Positions 20,810 to 28,374 of a DNA stretch of 32,000 bases are shown piece by piece; the first letter of the stretch is position 1; the number at the start of each line of letters is the position of its first letter. The notes below the pieces were generated by a model. It did not search any database. It was not told the DNA's origin and was given only the letters and a program-made list of their open reading frames with translations. The stretch is from Promethearchaeia archaeon (GTDB lineage: Archaea > Asgardarchaeota > Lokiarchaeia > Sigyniarchaeales > SOKP01), in NCBI GenBank assembly GCA_046497275.1, contig JAWOFX010000088.1, positions 1 through 32,000 of the forward strand, written 5' to 3'. A program made the position numbers and the translations under genes.

Positions 20810-22015
20810 ATGATGTCTGAAAATATGGCACAAAAAGGATTTATAGGACCAAAGGCTCTATTTGATCCATTTTATGTTCCTCCCAAACTTCTTTTTAGAA
20901 AGGAGGAAGAATCTTCTCTTCTCTCAATCCTAAATGATAGCTTTAAAGATAATTTTTCAATAAATATTTTATATCAAGGAATTGAAGGAATCGGTAAAAA
21001 GGCAATAATTAATAAAGTTCTTAGAGATTTATACAACTCTGACCAATATTTTCAACTATATAAAAAGATTCCATTAGACTGCAAAGAGAAAAGTCTTGAA
21101 GAAATTATAATTAGTTTAATTTCAATACTTTCAAAATATTCAAATCTTGGTTGTGAAATAAGTACTATATTAAATTCAAATATTTCGAAGTTATGGAGCA
21201 TCTTAAAATTGATGTGTAAAAAGCTTGATAATCATGTGATTTTTATTTTCTATAATTCTGAATTTCTTGAAACAAAAATCCAAAAAAAATTTCTAAGGTT
21301 TGGTAAAAATTCTAATATTTCCATTATTTCTACTGTGAATAATGTATTAAGACAAAATTCTTTAGATTTAATTTCTGATTATGATTTAAAAAGAAAATTA
21401 GACTTTTTTTCTTACGATCAACTTATCTCAATTTTTACTCAAAGAACTGATCTCAGTTTTTCCTATCAAGTAGATAGAGAATTGATTGAATTAATAACTG
21501 ATCTAATTTTTGAAAACTATGTTCCGATTCCAGGTAAAGGAATTAATATACTTCGAGATCTTTACCCTCCTCTAAAAAACAAACATAGTTTGGATTATAA
21601 TACTTTGCTTAAGATATGTGAGAACCATTTTGACTCTATTCATAATCAAGACGAATTCAATTTGCTAAATTACTTAGCTGAAGAAGATCTCTTAACAGTT
21701 TTATTCTTAGATAATCTAATAAATCATTTCATTTCTGATACATCAAATTATTATATAAATCTCGAAGATTTAAAGCAACTCTATTTGATCTCATGTGAAT
21801 CCTTAGAATATAGTAATGATCTTCAGGAATTCATGGATATTATAACAAGATTGAAAAATATTGGTATTATAAGCCCTTCTAAGAAAGGGATGGATTTAAC
21901 ATATGATATCTTACTTGAGAATGAATTTTCAAAAAATTACTATTTCTTAGTTCTAAATCCGATTAAATTGAAAGCAATGCTAGATGCAATTTTTTCTCAT
22001 AGAAGATTCGTTTAA
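20810..22015 (+). CDS. Degenerate Orc1/Cdc6-family AAA+ protein with a C-terminal winged helix
   Basis: FDPFYVPPKLLFRKEE (cf. LxPxYVPxxLxxRE), Walker A-like GIEGIGKK, a Walker B site lacking DE (IFIFYNSEFL), and wH-like LY..SCE...F..IITRLKNIGII. Confidence 0.8.
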   Translation: MMSENMAQKGFIGPKALFDPFYVPPKLLFRKEEESSLLSILNDSFKDNFSINILYQGIEGIGKKAIINKVLRDLYNSDQYFQLYKKIPLDCKEKSLEEIIISLISILSKYSNLGCEISTILNSNISKLWSILKLMCKKLDNHVIFIFYNSEFLETKIQKKFLRFGKNSNISIISTVNNVLRQNSLDLISDYDLKRKLDFFSYDQLISIFTQRTDLSFSYQVDRELIELITDLIFENYVPIPGKGINILRDLYPPLKNKHSLDYNTLLKICENHFDSIHNQDEFNLLNYLAEEDLLTVLFLDNLINHFISDTSNYYINLEDLKQLYLISCESLEYSNDLQEFMDIITRLKNIGIISPSKKGMDLTYDILLENEFSKNYYFLVLNPIKLKAMLDAIFSHRRFV

Positions 22016-22149: not shown

Positions 22150-25100
22150 TTGACATATATAAAGAGAATAAGCATGACTGGTTTTAAATCATTTGGTGAT
22201 AGAACTGTGACTGTGAGACTCTCTCCAGGGTTTACTTGCATAGTGGGTCCAAATGGGGCGGGTAAATCGAATATAATTGATGCTTTATGTTTTTCCCTCG
22301 GGAGATTATCTAAAAAAACAATGAGAGCCGAAAAGCTTGAGGATCTCATTTTTGCTGGATCAAGAGGTCATAAAGAGGGAAATAGAGCATCAGTGACCCT
22401 CTACTTCGATAATTCAGAAGGAATCTTTCCAGGTGGGACGGATGAATTTCAAATCTCAAGGATTGTGAGAAGAAATAAAGGAAATAAGTATAAAATGAAC
22501 GGCAAGATCACCACAAGACAACAGATTCTTGATACTCTAGCATCTGCTAATATTGATCCTGATGGGAGTAATCAATTTGTTTTACAAGGAAAAATAGTCG
22601 AATTAACCCACATGAACACAATTGAACGACGCGAATTTATTGAAGAATTAATTGGCCTTCAAAAATATGATGATATGAAAGAAGAGACTATGAAAGAATT
22701 AGAAAAAGCTGAACGTGACTTAGGACAATTTGAAGCAATTTTCAAAGAAGTTTCTTCTCAACTAAAAAAAGTTGAAAAAGAGAAAAATGATGCTCTTGCA
22801 TGGAGAGAATTGGAACAAGAAATTAATAGTTTAAAATCAAAATTAATTGCTCTGAAAATTTCGAAATTAAAGGAAGAAGAACAAGAAATAGAAAATCAAA
22901 TTGATGAAACTAAAAAAATTATCGAAGAATTAGAGGAGAAGATAAGAATCCAGAATGATGTTGTTGAACAAGAATCTTTGGTTATGGAAAATATACAAAG
23001 ATCTATTAATCAAAAAGAAAAAGAAAGAGATGAGATAAATGAAAGTATAACTGAATTAAAAACTCAACTATCTTCCAATAATACCACATTGGAAATGAAT
23101 CAAAAATCTTTGAAAAAACTTCAAGATGAGAAAACAGATTTAGAAAATAAACAAATGAAATTAGAAGAAGATCAGACTTACGACTCTTTAATTTCAGAAT
23201 CATTAGAAAAAATCAAAAAGATTGAACTAAAAGTTGAAGAAGCTAAAAAAGAAATAGACCAAAGACAACAATCCCAAACAGAAATTGATGAGCAAATTAA
23301 TCTTAAGGAACAAGAAAAATCCAATTTAAAATCAGAAATCTCAGAATTAAAACAAAAGATTTCATCCAAAAATTCAACGATAAAACATTTGAGCAACAAT
23401 ATTAACAAAAATATGGAAAAAAAAGAGAAATTAGAGGCGGAACTAAATAATCTGAAGGGGGAATCTGAAAGTATAGAAGATGCAATTAAAACTAAAAAAG
23501 CTGAAGAGGATAAAATTCGAAATGAAATTGAGGCTTTGAAAAATAGCATATCCAAGGAAAATGAAAATCGAAGAACGCTTGAAGAGACTATTAATTCTAA
23601 AAGAAATGAAGTAAATGAAATAAATTCTCAAATTTCAGAATTCAATTCTGCTTTATCTTCCATAAATACTGAAATAAAAATGCATAAGGACACTATTAAT
23701 AGTTTAACTGAAAAGAAACAGCAAAATGAAACAAAGGTAGATAATTTAAGTAAAGGAAAAGACATAAAAAAAGCACTAGAGGATCTAATTCAAGAAAAGA
23801 AGAAAAATTTAGAGGAAATCGAGAGTTTAAGAAAAAAGTTGAAAGAACAAAATTTTGAAATTCAGCAGATTGAAAAAAATCAAGAATTATTTAAAATGAA
23901 GTCAGATTCTGCGCTCTCTGAAATTAATGATAATCAATCAAAAATAAGTAATTTAATTACTCGTGTAAATCTCTATAAAAAGGAAATAAAAAATTTAGAA
24001 AGAGAACAAAAAACTCTTTCTTTAAAGGCCAACACCCTGGAAGAAAATATCTCAAAACATGACCAAAAAATAGAAGATTTAGTTAGTAAGAAAGAAAACG
24101 TTTTAAGGCGTTTAAGTGAATTAAATGCTGAAAGAGAAAGAACTCAGAAACGAATTGACAGAGCTGAAGAAGAATACGAAAAAGATAAAAAAGATATAGA
24201 AGGAATTCTGCAAATATTAAATATGTTAACTCAAAATATTAATATCTCTGTAGAATCCATAAAAAGTAATATTCAACAATCAAATGCTGAAGCAATTGAC
24301 ATGTCTGCAGAGGATTTTCGAAAATTTATTTTAGATGTTATAGATATGATGAAAACTGTTGAGGATGTAAGTTGTGAGGTGGAAGAAATAAGTGAAATGG
24401 AAAATACCTTGAATTCAATGATGCAAACCCTGTCTTTATTTACGGATAATGCAGATCAAACTATTGGACAATTGATAACTAAGGTTAAAGATTCTGTTGA
24501 TGTTGCTGTTCAAGATTCTACTTCTAATTTTGATAATTTTGTTCAAGATTTAATGGAAATTTTAGAAAATATGCATGTCTCTTTAAGAAAATTAACCGTT
24601 TCTAAGAGTCAGGATTTATACAAACAACTTGAGGAGATTATCCAAAACATTAAGGATCAAGATGACGATTTGAATAATATAGAAAAACAAATATCTGAAC
24701 TTAAAATTGAGAAAAATTATGACCTAAAAGACCTTTCTCTTTCAAAAGATAAATTAACAAAAGTTAAGGAGAGGTTCTCGGAGTTAAGCAATAAAATCTC
24801 TAACTCTGAACAAGAATTAGAAGAGAGAAATCAATTAGTGAATAAAAAAAGTAAAGAAAAGGATGAAATAGAAATTAAATTAGGCGATTTAAAGAAGTCT
24901 AAAGAGAAAATGTGGGAAAACATTTCAAATACTCAGGAAGAAATTGGTGTAAAACAAACAGAATTGGAGAAAGTTCAAGTAAAGCTTCAAGAGATGAGAG
25001 ATATTCACACCTTATTTGAAAATATCGAAGAAATTGAGTCAAATATCTCTGAATCTGAGAATCTCATTAAAGAGAAAAAAAATTCTATAGTGAATATAAA

Positions 25101-26595
25101 TGAGAAAATTAGCAGTTTGAAAAACCAACAAGAAACAATTTTAAAAAAAATTGAGAGTTTAGATAAGGAAAAAGAAGAGTTTTGGGAAAAATCAGAGAAT
25201 TTACAAGAAAAAATTGATGATAAAAATCGAGAACTTGAGAAGATATTAGATAAATTAAGATCTTTGGAAAATATTCAACGAATGATTAATACTATTGAAG
25301 AATTGAAAAAAGAAAATATTGAATCAGAAAAAAATATTGAACAAAATGAAAAAGATATAAATCAATTAAATGAAGAAATTTCATCCATTCAAGAAAAAGT
25401 TAATAATAAACAAGAAGAGATTGATTTATTAAGAAAAGAAAAAACGAAAGAGATTGAAGCTCAAAAGGATGCTCAGAAAAAATTAAACCAATTCAATAAG
25501 AATTTACAAAAAAGCCAAAATGAATTAAATAATCTTAAAAAGAATAAAGAGAGAGAAGACACTATAAAATCGATCACTAAAGAAATATCTCTAACAAAAA
25601 CCCAAACTTCAGAATTGACCCAAAAAATTGATGAAATGCAAAAGAAATTAGAAGAAGAAAATAACAAAAAATTGGAGAAACAAACAGAAATTGATAAATT
25701 AACTGAAGAGAAAGATGAATCCTGGAAAAAGCAAAAAAAATACCAAAAAACATATACAGATCTAAAATCAGATCTTTCAATGAATCAATCAAAGCTAAAT
25801 AATTTTGAGTCTAAAAAAATTGCTACAACTGATCAAATTGAAACCCTTTATCAAAGATCAAAAGATTATGGAGCACTCCCCCATATTACTGAGGGGATCA
25901 CTGAGGAACAATTACAATCCAGTATAGATGAAGCAAATAAAAATAAACAGGCTCTTGAACCCGTTAATTTGAAAGCAATTCAACAATATGATGCTGTGAA
26001 AGAAAGATTTGACGAAATTGATATGAGAAGACAAACTATCCAACGTGAAAGAAAATCTATTTTGGATGCAATCGAGAAAATAGAATTGGAAAAGACTCAA
26101 ACTTTCATGAAATCTTACCATGAAATTAATAGAGAATTCTCCAAGATATTCCAAAAATTATCTCCGGGTGGTTCTGCAAAAATGATTTTAGATCGACCTG
26201 ATAAACCTTTTGAAGGTGGTATCAGTATTGAAGCGCGACCCAGAGGAAAAAAGATCGCATCCTTGGAGATACTTAGCGGGGGTGAGAAAACGCTGGTAGC
26301 TCTCTCTTTCATATTTGCCGTCCAAGAATTCTATCCTGCACCGTTTTATGTCATGGATGAGATAGATGCCGCTCTCGATGGCCCAAATGTTCATCGTGTT
26401 TCTATGGTAATAAAGGAATTTGCTGAACAAGCACAATTCCTTATTATAAGTCATCGAGAGGAAAATATTGTTAATGCGGATAGAATATATGGAGTATCAA
26501 TGCAAGAAAGCGGAATAACCGATATTTTCAGTGTCGATTTAGAAGAAGAAGCAAAACGCTTAATAGAACCTGAAGAGGCTGCATCTAAAACCTAA
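22150..26595 (+). CDS. smc: SMC ATPase (condensin-type heads), unusually long, with a non-canonical apex
   Basis: Walker A GPNGAGKS (aa 33-40), Q-loop FVLQG, VNLKAIQQY, signature LSGGEK (aa ~1375), Walker B/D-loop YVMDEIDAALD, and ISHR. SD GGAG precedes the TTG. Confidence 0.95.
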   Translation: MTYIKRISMTGFKSFGDRTVTVRLSPGFTCIVGPNGAGKSNIIDALCFSLGRLSKKTMRAEKLEDLIFAGSRGHKEGNRASVTLYFDNSEGIFPGGTDEFQISRIVRRNKGNKYKMNGKITTRQQILDTLASANIDPDGSNQFVLQGKIVELTHMNTIERREFIEELIGLQKYDDMKEETMKELEKAERDLGQFEAIFKEVSSQLKKVEKEKNDALAWRELEQEINSLKSKLIALKISKLKEEEQEIENQIDETKKIIEELEEKIRIQNDVVEQESLVMENIQRSINQKEKERDEINESITELKTQLSSNNTTLEMNQKSLKKLQDEKTDLENKQMKLEEDQTYDSLISESLEKIKKIELKVEEAKKEIDQRQQSQTEIDEQINLKEQEKSNLKSEISELKQKISSKNSTIKHLSNNINKNMEKKEKLEAELNNLKGESESIEDAIKTKKAEEDKIRNEIEALKNSISKENENRRTLEETINSKRNEVNEINSQISEFNSALSSINTEIKMHKDTINSLTEKKQQNETKVDNLSKGKDIKKALEDLIQEKKKNLEEIESLRKKLKEQNFEIQQIEKNQELFKMKSDSALSEINDNQSKISNLITRVNLYKKEIKNLEREQKTLSLKANTLEENISKHDQKIEDLVSKKENVLRRLSELNAERERTQKRIDRAEEEYEKDKKDIEGILQILNMLTQNINISVESIKSNIQQSNAEAIDMSAEDFRKFILDVIDMMKTVEDVSCEVEEISEMENTLNSMMQTLSLFTDNADQTIGQLITKVKDSVDVAVQDSTSNFDNFVQDLMEILENMHVSLRKLTVSKSQDLYKQLEEIIQNIKDQDDDLNNIEKQISELKIEKNYDLKDLSLSKDKLTKVKERFSELSNKISNSEQELEERNQLVNKKSKEKDEIEIKLGDLKKSKEKMWENISNTQEEIGVKQTELEKVQVKLQEMRDIHTLFENIEEIESNISESENLIKEKKNSIVNINEKISSLKNQQETILKKIESLDKEKEEFWEKSENLQEKIDDKNRELEKILDKLRSLENIQRMINTIEELKKENIESEKNIEQNEKDINQLNEEISSIQEKVNNKQEEIDLLRKEKTKEIEAQKDAQKKLNQFNKNLQKSQNELNNLKKNKEREDTIKSITKEISLTKTQTSELTQKIDEMQKKLEEENNKKLEKQTEIDKLTEEKDESWKKQKKYQKTYTDLKSDLSMNQSKLNNFESKKIATTDQIETLYQRSKDYGALPHITEGITEEQLQSSIDEANKNKQALEPVNLKAIQQYDAVKERFDEIDMRRQTIQRERKSILDAIEKIELEKTQTFMKSYHEINREFSKIFQKLSPGGSAKMILDRPDKPFEGGISIEARPRGKKIASLEILSGGEKTLVALSFIFAVQEFYPAPFYVMDEIDAALDGPNVHRVSMVIKEFAEQAQFLIISHREENIVNADRIYGVSMQESGITDIFSVDLEEEAKRLIEPEEAASKT

Positions 26596-26605
26596 AAACT
26601 TATGG

Positions 26606-27610
26606 GTGATTATCATTTCAAAAAAGGAAACAAATGAAGAATATAATTTTAAAGATTGGACTGTTAATGAACTAAGGGATTTTGCAGCAACTAATAATAT
26701 TTCGATTCCAGCAGGATCTAGAAAAAATGAAATTATAGAATTATTAGAAGGTATTGTATCTCACCCTGATTTTGTTGATAGGACAAAAGAAGAGAATTTT
26801 GAAGAAGAGTTAATAGTGGGGGAAGAGGAAGATGATTTAGCTCCCTTATTTAAAGAAGATATGAAAAATCTAAAATTCTGGCATAAACCTCCTTACTCAA
26901 CTCTCCTAAATATTGAATTGGCAAAAGATTCAGACGTGGCTTTTTATGATTTATCTACATTAGTCGATAAATTCTTCGATAAAATGTTAAGAGAGGAATA
27001 TATTAATTATAAAATCTCCGGCATTGCATTGAAAACTTCAGCATCATTACATCATCACAAAATAAATAGTGTTATAAAGCAAGAGGAGGAGATCCAGAAA
27101 CAAGAAAAAATTGAAGAAATGAGAAAAAGAGCCAGGCGAAGAATTCCAAAAACCCTTTCTCAACCATTACGACCTAAAATGAAAATGACAAGTAAAGATG
27201 AATTATATGAAGCCATGAGGGCTGCTATAATTGAAACTATGCAAAAAAAAGAGAAACTTAAAAGAAGGAGATTAAAAAGAGAGCAGAAATTAGAAAAACG
27301 TAGAGAAGAAAAAGCAAAAGCTAATTTACCAAAAGAATTATTAAAACACATTAGTGGGAGAGAACAAACAATAGAAGAACTGCATAATTCATGGTTTAAT
27401 AAGATAAGAACTAAAATCAAACTTGAAAATAAAGAGGATACTTCCTTTTTTGACCTTATAAAATTAATCAATGAAGAGGAAGAGAGTTCGTTAGGAAGAA
27501 AATATGAATTTATAAGAATGTTTTTAGCACTAATGTTTTTAAGCACGAGCAATAAAATAGAATTGAATCAAGATCAAGAATTTAAAGATATTAAAATTTC
27601 TTTACCATAA
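26606..27610 (+). CDS. scpA: Kleisin ScpA with an N-terminal extension
   Basis: N-kleisin region (PPYSTLL...FYDLSTLVDKF...SGIAL..SASL) and C-terminal wHD FIRMFLALMFL...IELNQDQEFKDIKI; directly downstream of smc. Confidence 0.88.
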   Translation: MIIISKKETNEEYNFKDWTVNELRDFAATNNISIPAGSRKNEIIELLEGIVSHPDFVDRTKEENFEEELIVGEEEDDLAPLFKEDMKNLKFWHKPPYSTLLNIELAKDSDVAFYDLSTLVDKFFDKMLREEYINYKISGIALKTSASLHHHKINSVIKQEEEIQKQEKIEEMRKRARRRIPKTLSQPLRPKMKMTSKDELYEAMRAAIIETMQKKEKLKRRRLKREQKLEKRREEKAKANLPKELLKHISGREQTIEELHNSWFNKIRTKIKLENKEDTSFFDLIKLINEEEESSLGRKYEFIRMFLALMFLSTSNKIELNQDQEFKDIKISLP

Positions 27611-27645
27611 TACTAATTTTAATAAATAAGATAAAGGATTTGCTT

Positions 27646-28374
27646 ATGCCAGAAGAAAAATCACACAAGGATTTAGAAGCTAATGATCAAGAAAATAATA
27701 TGTCCCAATCTGATGAGATAAAGCAGCAAAATGATATTGAGACCGATAAAGATGACCAATCTAATAATAATCAAGAGGAAGAAGATTTTGATGATATGAT
27801 TAGAACTCAAGATTTGTTTCAATCTAATGGTGATCAAGAAGAGGTCTTACTTGAAGAGAATCTTGAAGATTATCAAAGAAATCTAATTGAAGGTGCCTTA
27901 TATGCTTCTGGAGAACCGTTAACAGTCGAGGAGATATATACAAGATTAGACATCTCCAAGAATGATGTTCAAAAATATCTAAATGAATTAATTGATATGT
28001 ATGAAACGAGGAGTACAGCGCTTACTATTATTAATATTGGAGATAAATATCAGATGCAAATTAAATCCGAATATACTGAACCGATTTCTCAATTTGCCGA
28101 GGGAGGTGGTTTAGCAGAGAAATATTTACGTACCCTTACAATAATAGCACTTAAGCAACCTATTTTAAAATCAATCTTAGTTAAGATTAGAGGTAGTGGT
28201 GCCTATGAGCATGTCCAATATTTAATTGATAATGGATTTTTAAACTCCATTAAAAAAGGGAGGACCTCTGAATTAACAACAACAGAAAAATATGCTGAGA
28301 CTTTTGGACTACCTAAAAACATCGAAGAAATGAAAAAAGAAATGGTTGCTCAATTGGGTATTGATAATGAATAA
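27646..28374 (+). CDS. scpB: KITE subunit ScpB with an acidic N-terminal tail
   Basis: IEGALYASGEPL, YQMQIK, LRTLTIIALKQPI, IRGSGAYEHVQYL and TTEKYAETFGL. Confidence 0.92.
   Translation: MPEEKSHKDLEANDQENNMSQSDEIKQQNDIETDKDDQSNNNQEEEDFDDMIRTQDLFQSNGDQEEVLLEENLEDYQRNLIEGALYASGEPLTVEEIYTRLDISKNDVQKYLNELIDMYETRSTALTIINIGDKYQMQIKSEYTEPISQFAEGGGLAEKYLRTLTIIALKQPILKSILVKIRGSGAYEHVQYLIDNGFLNSIKKGRTSELTTTEKYAETFGLPKNIEEMKKEMVAQLGIDNE

Follow-up and report, generated by a model that had tools for sequence, protein, structure and literature searches.

Can an SMC motor of the condensin type dispense with its hinge? This question is raised by a locus in contig JAWOFX010000088.1 (assembly GCA_046497275.1) of a Promethearchaeia archaeon of the order Sigyniarchaeales, whose first 32,000 nucleotides, hereafter the window, were analysed here. 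The locus encodes an unusually long protein of the SMC (structural maintenance of chromosomes) family, followed by a kleisin and by ScpB. To our knowledge, all true SMC proteins are regarded as having a hinge, for which roles as dimerisation point, as DNA-binding site and as gate for DNA or obstacles have been proposed. Sequence comparisons confirmed that the complex of the window is a divergent condensin-type Smc-kleisin-ScpB, with an SMC subunit devoid of the alpha/beta hinge.

An SMC protein with complete ATPase heads and no hinge

The gene and the two halves of its ATPase head are located as follows:

22150..26595, + strand: smc gene, hinge-less paralogue, 1481 aa, stop codon included (open reading frame and translation; SMC_N match without SMC_hinge)
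22150..22644, + strand: N-terminal half of the ATPase head, aa 1-165 (motif search; column conservation 0.75-0.98 among 104 homologues)
26035..26592, + strand: C-terminal half of the ATPase head, aa 1296-1481 (motif search; conservation 0.83-0.96)

The start codon is TTG, and the homologues open with the same MTYIKRISMTGFKSFG. The heads had been described as canonical in the initial annotation and, in fact, all five motif types of a condensin-type Smc head were located by motif search: the Walker A GPNGAGKS (aa 33-40), the Q-loop VLQG (aa 144-147), the signature LSGGE (at aa 1375), the Walker B/D-loop FYVMDEIDAALD (at aa 1399) and the H-loop IISHR (at aa 1432). The Pfam family SMC_N matches with an E value of 3.7e-35. 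Among the NCBIfam models, TIGR02168 (SMC_prok_B) gives 606.7 bits, above its cut-off of 567.35, and TIGR02169 (SMC_prok_A) gives 655.1 bits, below its cut-off of 729.4, in a match split over 4 stretches.

The hinge that a condensin-type Smc would be expected to have was not found: neither the whole protein nor aa 600-900 matches SMC_hinge (PF06470) at E<=1, the other Pfam matches to aa 600-900 being only to weak coiled-coil families (e.g. Spectrin, 0.0027). The zinc hook that Rad50 and ASRP carry at their apex was not found either, since the motif CxxC occurs nowhere in the protein, whose only cysteines are Cys30, Cys47 and Cys742; the last of these is not conserved and falls in the one stretch of the apex that the family alignment shows to be unconserved. 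In a six-frame search of the window genome (3.85 Mb, 98.9% complete), one hinge only was detected, on contig C84. A profile of the apex retrieved nothing below E 1 from the PDB sequences, and a feature search of the ESM Atlas with aa 665-845 retrieved unnamed clusters only (0.89-0.90). Comparison of the same profile with the hinge region of the orthologues from sister orders gave an hhalign probability of 0.2%, i.e. no similarity, so the apex could not be derived from a degraded hinge.

Hinges can score weakly with PF06470, as exemplified by a sister-order orthologue (31.6 bits) and by the SMC5/6-like paralogue of the window genome (36.5 bits), and it was considered whether the missing hinge could be an artefact, namely a misassembly, a pseudogene or a degenerate hinge overlooked by the profile. 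This is not supported and we regard it as extremely improbable, since an open frame of 1470-1510 aa recurs in 130 other genomes, single-contig ones included, and since the region is all-helical in an AlphaFold2 (AF2) model, in addition to the two negative comparisons given above. Misassembly is excluded because the same architecture is present in more than 100 independent assemblies, again including single-contig genomes. The absence of both hinge and zinc hook, claimed from the sequence at first reading, thus stands, and neither a hinge match nor a hinge fold nor a misassembly near 24200-24600 was borne out.

The apex is an internal repeat predicted to fold as a helical hairpin

At the position where the hinge would be expected, we identified four segments, for which the predicted local distance difference test (pLDDT) of the AF2 model is given where relevant:

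24196..24360, + strand: apex repeat unit 1, aa 683-737, predicted ascending helix of the tip hairpin (repeat; AF2 helix 591-739; conservation 0.90 at aa 691-720; 42% strong hydrophobic residues)
24361..24408, + strand: variable acidic linker, aa 738-753, with the predicted turn at aa 740-746 (AF2 loop, model residues 151-157, pLDDT 53-64)
24409..24573, + strand: apex repeat unit 2, aa 754-808, predicted descending helix of the tip hairpin (repeat; AF2 helix 747-914; 38% strong hydrophobic residues)
24574..24669, + strand: conserved continuation of the descending helix, aa 809-840 (invariant S811, L812, L815, S818, K819, Y824 and I830; conservation 0.77-0.80)

Two ungapped repeats lying 213 nt apart had been noticed in the initial annotation, and their positions proved to be exact, the starts at nt 24196 and 24409 corresponding, in frame, to aa 683 and 754. 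The raw identity of the two units is 10/55 and their ungapped BLOSUM62 score is 62, a value reached by 0 of 20,000 shuffles; the pair is also the best of 957 alternative windows within the protein, the runner-up scoring 25. The same ungapped alignment, of 55 columns, was returned by hhalign with family profiles from the 104 full-length homologues (probability 94%, E 1.3e-7), whereas 20 control comparisons with arm segments did not exceed a probability of 1.4%. Residues 683-737 and 754-808 form a genuine internal repeat, separated by the linker, which is the only indel-rich and unconserved stretch of the apex.

The AF2 model was calculated for the monomer of aa 590-915 with the 104-sequence alignment, the five models being ranked by pLDDT. 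It predicts a helix at 591-739, a 7-residue turn at 740-746 and a helix at 747-914, with a mean pLDDT of 85.5. The flanking arm parts are modelled with a pLDDT of 92-96, which drops to 64-83 across aa 690-820 and to 53 at the turn. The modelled region is thus predicted to be a long antiparallel coiled coil, as in the arm of a condensin-type Smc, and, because the hairpin turns at 740-746, units 1 and 2 would correspond to the ascending and descending strands of the tip, in agreement with the earlier proposal of a helical hairpin made of repeat units. In Foldseek searches with this model, the best match was the cytoplasmic domain of a chemoreceptor (2ch7; E 5e-4, TM 0.36-0.50); other long hairpins, namely the MukB arm, dynein stalks, the coiled coil of Rad50 and fragments of Smc arms, were also among the best matches, and a hinge-like fold was not. 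We infer, as the best explanation of these data, that the conserved helical hairpin (aa ~683-840) arose by tandem duplication of a helix of ~55 aa.

The 104 homologues share an overall identity of 57-77%, and their conservation is about 0.8 at aa 781-840, besides the 0.90 of aa 691-720, compared to 0.45-0.65 in the arms and 0.8-0.98 in the heads. There are 39 invariant columns, among them many polar residues of the surface type. The share of strong hydrophobic residues is 38-42% in the two units and 25% in the arms; the former exceeds what a two-stranded coiled coil needs and therefore makes an extra buried face likely, provided either by a second hairpin in a four-helix bundle or by a partner. 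These features are evidence for a tip that acts as a functional module and not as a passive turn. The tip is also acidic, with 9 Lys and Arg vs 25 Asp and Glu in 142 aa. DNA binding is a role ascribed to canonical hinges, and the acidic surface argues against such a role for this apex.

The smc-kleisin-scpB gene cluster

Two partner genes lie directly downstream of smc:

26606..27610, + strand: kleisin, ScpA-like, 334 aa (PF02616, 25.0 bits with a cut-off of 24.6, at aa 207-333)
27640..28374, + strand: ScpB (kite), 244 aa, with an acidic N-terminal extension (PF04079, 1e-33; TIGR00281, 100 bits)

Both partners of an Smc-ScpAB complex are present, the kleisin being recognised by PF02616 barely over its cut-off, and the operon with scpA and scpB that had been assigned at first reading is corroborated. 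Weaker Pfam matches of the kleisin are to Rad21_Rec8 at its C-terminus (E 0.021), and to Ish1 (1e-4) and HeH (0.02) at its N-terminus. Of 14 loci checked, 13 have a homologous kleisin gene located 3' of the hinge-less smc, and 12 keep the complete order smc-kleisin-scpB. The intact motifs, the conserved gene order and the fact that this is the only ScpB-linked SMC in the genome (see below) are evidence, as far as sequence can tell, for a working Smc complex.

We also noticed an extra HeH/SAP-like motif at the N-terminus of the kleisin (window 26606-26760). When the families of the window's order are designated f1 to f4, with the window genome in f1, tblastn finds this N-terminus only in close f1 relatives, the alignment with kleisins of f3 and f4 beginning near aa 85. 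The N-terminal extension of ScpB (window 27640-27880) comprises ~80 aa and is acidic and of low complexity. ScpB proteins encoded beside the hinge-less SMCs and beside their hinge-bearing sister group are long (244-343 aa), and those encoded beside the canonical Smc are short (196-218 aa). Upstream of smc, an open reading frame (ORF) of 401 aa (window 20810-22015) matches no Pfam family at E<=0.001, and it is not kept 5' of the hinge-less smc in genome G135.

Distribution of the apex and SMC paralogues in the order

A word-indexed search with aa 640-860 retrieved 169 clusters (59-85% identity), nearly all of 1470-1487 aa and nearly all from Lokiarchaeia/Promethearchaeota assemblies, with PF06470 in none of them; an exhaustive search of 1.84 billion representatives with the apex profile gave 38 hits only. 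The module was found in 133 of 400 genomes of the phylum, and all but two hits fall within the window's order, where, with the window genome excluded, 130 of 153 genomes carry it (f1, 113/134; f2, 1/1; f3, 14/14; f4, 2/4), and three single-contig genomes (4.36, 6.04 and 4.32 Mb) are carriers. The same apex is present in other Asgard genomes, as conserved module confined to one Lokiarchaeial order. The two carriers outside the order are L047 (G063:C70, on an 8.6-kb contig) and G039 (three fragments); they resemble f3- or f1-type genes on short contigs, and were probably mis-binned rather than transferred.

In a phylum-wide scan with PF06470 we observed that the closed genomes and several f1 genera hold three SMCs. 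One is a canonical Smc of ~1200 aa, with a strong hinge (E 1e-30 to 1e-34), 828 bits with TIGR02169 and its own short ScpB adjoining; examples of ~1205 aa are located in the closed genomes G135 and G138 (L012:7177-10797 and L014:6884-10501). Another is a weak-hinge SMC of ~1150-1190 aa, represented in the window genome by the hinge-bearing gene of contig C84 (L010:7296-10763, + strand; 1155 aa, divergent heads). The third is the hinge-less SMC, with its kleisin and long ScpB. The weak-hinge paralogue probably belongs to the SMC5/6-related type of archaeal SMCs already described (Yoshinaga and Inagaki, PMC8665677; bioRxiv 10.1101/2024.01.07.573240). On contig C84 the ORFs flanking its gene, of 421, 219 and 182 aa, match neither Pfam nor NCBIfam families, and the locus is probably an SMC5/6-related archaeal operon with kleisin and kite genes that went unrecognised.

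Only the weak-hinge and the hinge-less paralogues are present in all six genomes of the window's genus and in seven further f1 genera, which together account for most f1 genomes. Genera without a canonical copy gave only weak hinge hits in the PF06470 scan; in the window genome, tblastn with the canonical Smc matches only contigs C69 and C84, and the one ScpB lies next to the hinge-less smc. From these three observations it follows that the hinge-less complex is the sole condensin-type Smc-ScpAB of the window genome. Judged from these searches, the window genome has lost its canonical copy. The possibility of a second, hinge-bearing Smc, raised in the initial annotation, is thus realised in the closed genomes of the order and not in the window genome. 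Likewise, its description of the complex as an Smc-ScpAB variant is appropriate as regards the ScpAB partners, although the hinge-less protein is not simply "the" Smc of these organisms, being one of up to three paralogues.

Origin of the hinge-less SMC

A tree of the head domains was calculated from the N-terminal 215 aa and the C-terminal 205 aa of 48 sequences (409 columns, LG+F+G4, ultrafast bootstrap, UFboot). The hinge-less SMCs are monophyletic (UFboot 100), and their sister group (UFboot 96) is formed by SMCs of 1189 aa that come from sister orders within the class and in which the hinge is located at aa 533-636, the SMC model is covered in one stretch (680 bits) and a long-form ScpB adjoins. 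The canonical Smc of the order constitutes a separate clade (UFboot 100). The hinge-less clade falls within the canonical-type radiation, and a long branch separates the weak-hinge paralogues (L010 and L035-L038). Assignment of the hinge-less clade to the SMC5/6-related type was rejected on the basis of this placement. An SMC5/6-like nature of the 1189-aa proteins, which their weak hinge score could have suggested, was ruled out as well, the tree making them the nearest relatives of the hinge-less clade. By this phylogeny, the hinge-less SMC descends from hinge-bearing relatives of 1189 aa and, since its sisters bear hinges, the hinge was replaced on the stem of the order.

Repeat units in the arms

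The arms contain tandem repeats of their own:

23005..24129, + strand: N-arm tandem repeats of 97/98 aa, at aa 286-382, 383-480 and 481-577, and a partial one at 578-660 (hhalign)
24889..25698, + strand: C-arm tandem repeats of 90 aa, at aa 914-1003 and 1004-1093, and a weaker one at 1094-1183 (hhalign)

Comparison of family profiles of neighbouring units gave hhalign probabilities of 92-97% in the N-arm, and of 97% and 68% in the C-arm. The hinge-less SMCs of f4, which are the earliest-branching, have 1296-1299 aa (one is labelled Sigynarchaeota at source) and are devoid of aa 497-593 (97 aa) and of aa 862-875 and 887-962 (90 aa) of the window SMC. These gaps match the repeat sizes, which indicates that one unit per arm is absent from the f4 form. 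As read from these alignments, the arms are lengthened by matched units, those of the N-arm having 97 aa and those of the C-arm 90 aa. Smc arm lengths that are functional, or that occur naturally, were found to follow a period of ~91-99 aa (Buermann et al., 2017; PMC5344682), and the units of the window SMC are consistent with it.

A second protein family with the apex module

The module is not exclusive to SMC proteins. We identified a family of ~920-1180 aa (P0143-P0158, hereafter P0143-type; e.g. L055:6688-10044 and L056:5981-8746) with two complete apex-like modules (aa ~45-236 and ~303-476), followed by a beta-rich middle part and a Lys-rich C-terminal tail, which means that the module can exist outside SMC. 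Apart from one f1 genome (G221), these proteins are restricted to f3 genomes. They match no Pfam family, and their genomic context is uninformative, an S33 hydrolase being the sole conserved neighbour. The AF2 model of aa 1-520 of a P0143-type protein (pLDDT 88; predicted template modelling score 0.60) is all-helical, with two long hairpins and with kinks within the matching helices at residues 110, 156 and 180; its Foldseek matches were uninformative. In a tree of the modules, both P0143-type copies nest among the SMC tips of f3, with weak support.

Possible mechanism and alternative explanations

Each arm of the complex would end in an antiparallel helical hairpin instead of a hinge, and the hairpins of two subunits would lie side by side, forming a four-helix bundle that would take over the task of the hinge and keep the arms joined. 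The SMC-kleisin complex would thereby be closed into a ring or rod of ~80 nm (estimated from roughly 560 residues per strand and about 0.15 nm per residue), which would go through the usual ATP cycle on the chromosome. Because the tip is acidic, contacts with DNA would be made at the heads, kleisin and kite, and not at the apex. We lean slightly towards a parallel packing of the two tip hairpins in such a bundle, by analogy with chemoreceptor hairpins and from the predicted model.

Several observations weigh against this proposal. The pairing of apices is something that we infer, and the AF2 model, being that of a monomer, cannot show a bundle; a complex prediction with two apex copies gave a score of 0.05, against a mark of 0.42, which is no answer and not evidence either way. 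The pLDDT values of the tip and turn make its detailed geometry uncertain. The deficit of Lys and Arg residues in the acidic tip equally suits the docking of a basic partner. In addition, the head tree has a weak backbone, with support of 39-65, which limits what it can say on the age of the paralogy and of the duplication.

The tip may be a docking site that does not dimerise, in which case the subunits would be joined only by the ATP-engaged heads and the kleisin. Candidate partners would be a basic chromatin protein, the head/kleisin/ScpB module of the same complex, reached by a fold in the arm, or else a P0143-type protein in certain lineages. The strongly acidic, Lys/Arg-depleted surface and the invariant polar residues of the tip would suit this arrangement, as would the presence of the module, twice, in the unrelated Lys-tailed P0143-type family, which shows that it can work outside SMC; moreover, no apex dimeriser was identified in "hinge-less" SMC-like proteins of marine Actinobacteria (PMC12153180). 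Nevertheless, P0143-type proteins are missing from the window genome and from almost all other f1 genomes, which gave a single match each, so that they cannot serve as partners in general; a second closure point is needed in all SMC-kleisin complexes that have been characterised, and the hydrophobic excess on both helices suits a symmetric bundle at least equally. We consider a docking apex unlikely. An explanation that appears to us less likely still is that the AF2 hairpin is over-simplified and that the ~140 conserved residues fold into a compact globular domain made of helices only, such as an intramolecular four-helix bundle; this domain would act as a novel type of "hinge", whether or not it dimerises. 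The drop in pLDDT from the arms to aa 690-820, a hydrophobic content too high for a two-helix coil and the kinks in the P0143-type helices could be read in this way, but the helices of the top-ranked of the five AF2 models are unbroken across both units, no conserved Gly or Pro break occurs within either unit among the 104 sequences, and indels concentrate in a single segment, the linker at aa 738-753.

Returning to the paired hairpins, the wider proposal of which they are a part is that of a natural hinge-free SMC-kleisin-kite motor, the sole condensin-type complex in most f1 genomes, with a tip that would be either a new homodimeric bundle or an apex left unclosed, and with arms lengthened by whole superhelical periods. 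Taken as a whole, this has in our judgement an even chance of being right.

Significance and comparison with known systems

A whole Asgard order carries a hinge-free Smc-kleisin-ScpB, which is the sole condensin-type complex remaining in most of the window genome's family. This naturally occurring complex could show whether an SMC motor requires a hinge, and which functions of the hinge are indispensable to loop extrusion or DNA entrapment, and it would be a natural counterpart to the hinge-swap experiments made in B. subtilis. The arms offer a worked example of length evolving in steps of one coiled-coil period, and the presence of up to three distinct SMC complexes in Lokiarchaeia bears on the origin of the eukaryotic SMC repertoire. 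Full-text literature searches retrieved no description of a hinge-less Asgard SMC, and the protein may still be considered a candidate new SMC architecture in Asgard archaea, as had been suggested; a bioRxiv study on SMC evolution reported two kleisins and two ScpB-like kites in Prometheoarchaeum and does not mention the hinge.

The window SMC shares with the canonical Smc-ScpAB (B. subtilis, Pyrococcus; TIGR02168/TIGR02169) the ABC-type heads with full motifs, the long antiparallel coiled-coil arm, the operon with kleisin and ScpB, and a score above the TIGR02168 cut-off. It differs in having no PF06470, in its helical hairpin tip, in being about 300 aa longer through the matched arm repeats, and in its TIGR02169 score (655 bits, cut-off 729), compared to 828 for the canonical Smc of the order. 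The closest experimental precedent is the engineered Smc(Zh) of B. subtilis, whose hinge was swapped for the zinc hook of P. furiosus Rad50 and which is functional and supports normal growth (Buermann et al., 2017; PMC5344682); the hinge fold can thus be dispensed with, provided that dimerisation and arm phase are kept. Both proteins have a non-hinge apex on Smc arms, but the window SMC occurs in nature and is devoid of a metal-binding CxxC, and dimerisation of its apex is proposed from the model and by analogy.

Rad50 and the archaeal ASRP (coalescin ClsN, Sph1/2) are SMC-superfamily ATPases with a coiled-coil hairpin and, like the window SMC, no globular hinge (PMC9389158). Unlike it, they dimerise by a CxxC zinc hook and come without kleisin and ScpB, and their heads are distant, as judged from the scores of the window SMC with the ASRP model (161 bits, cut-off 300) and with the Rad50 models (around 100 bits, cut-offs 700-1087). 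The "hinge-less" SMC homologues of marine Actinobacteria, composed of an ATPase head and a coiled coil, also have neither hinge nor CxxC (Sussfeld et al., 2025; PMC12153180); compared by description only, they differ in being bacterial, known from metagenomes only, and reported with neither a conserved, duplicated tip module nor a ScpAB operon. The cytoplasmic domain of the chemoreceptor (2ch7) is, like the predicted apex, a helical hairpin of great length whose tip is highly conserved, and in the chemoreceptor it forms a homodimeric four-helix bundle; there is no sequence relationship and the match is one of generic fold, so that it serves as an analogy for the mechanism only.

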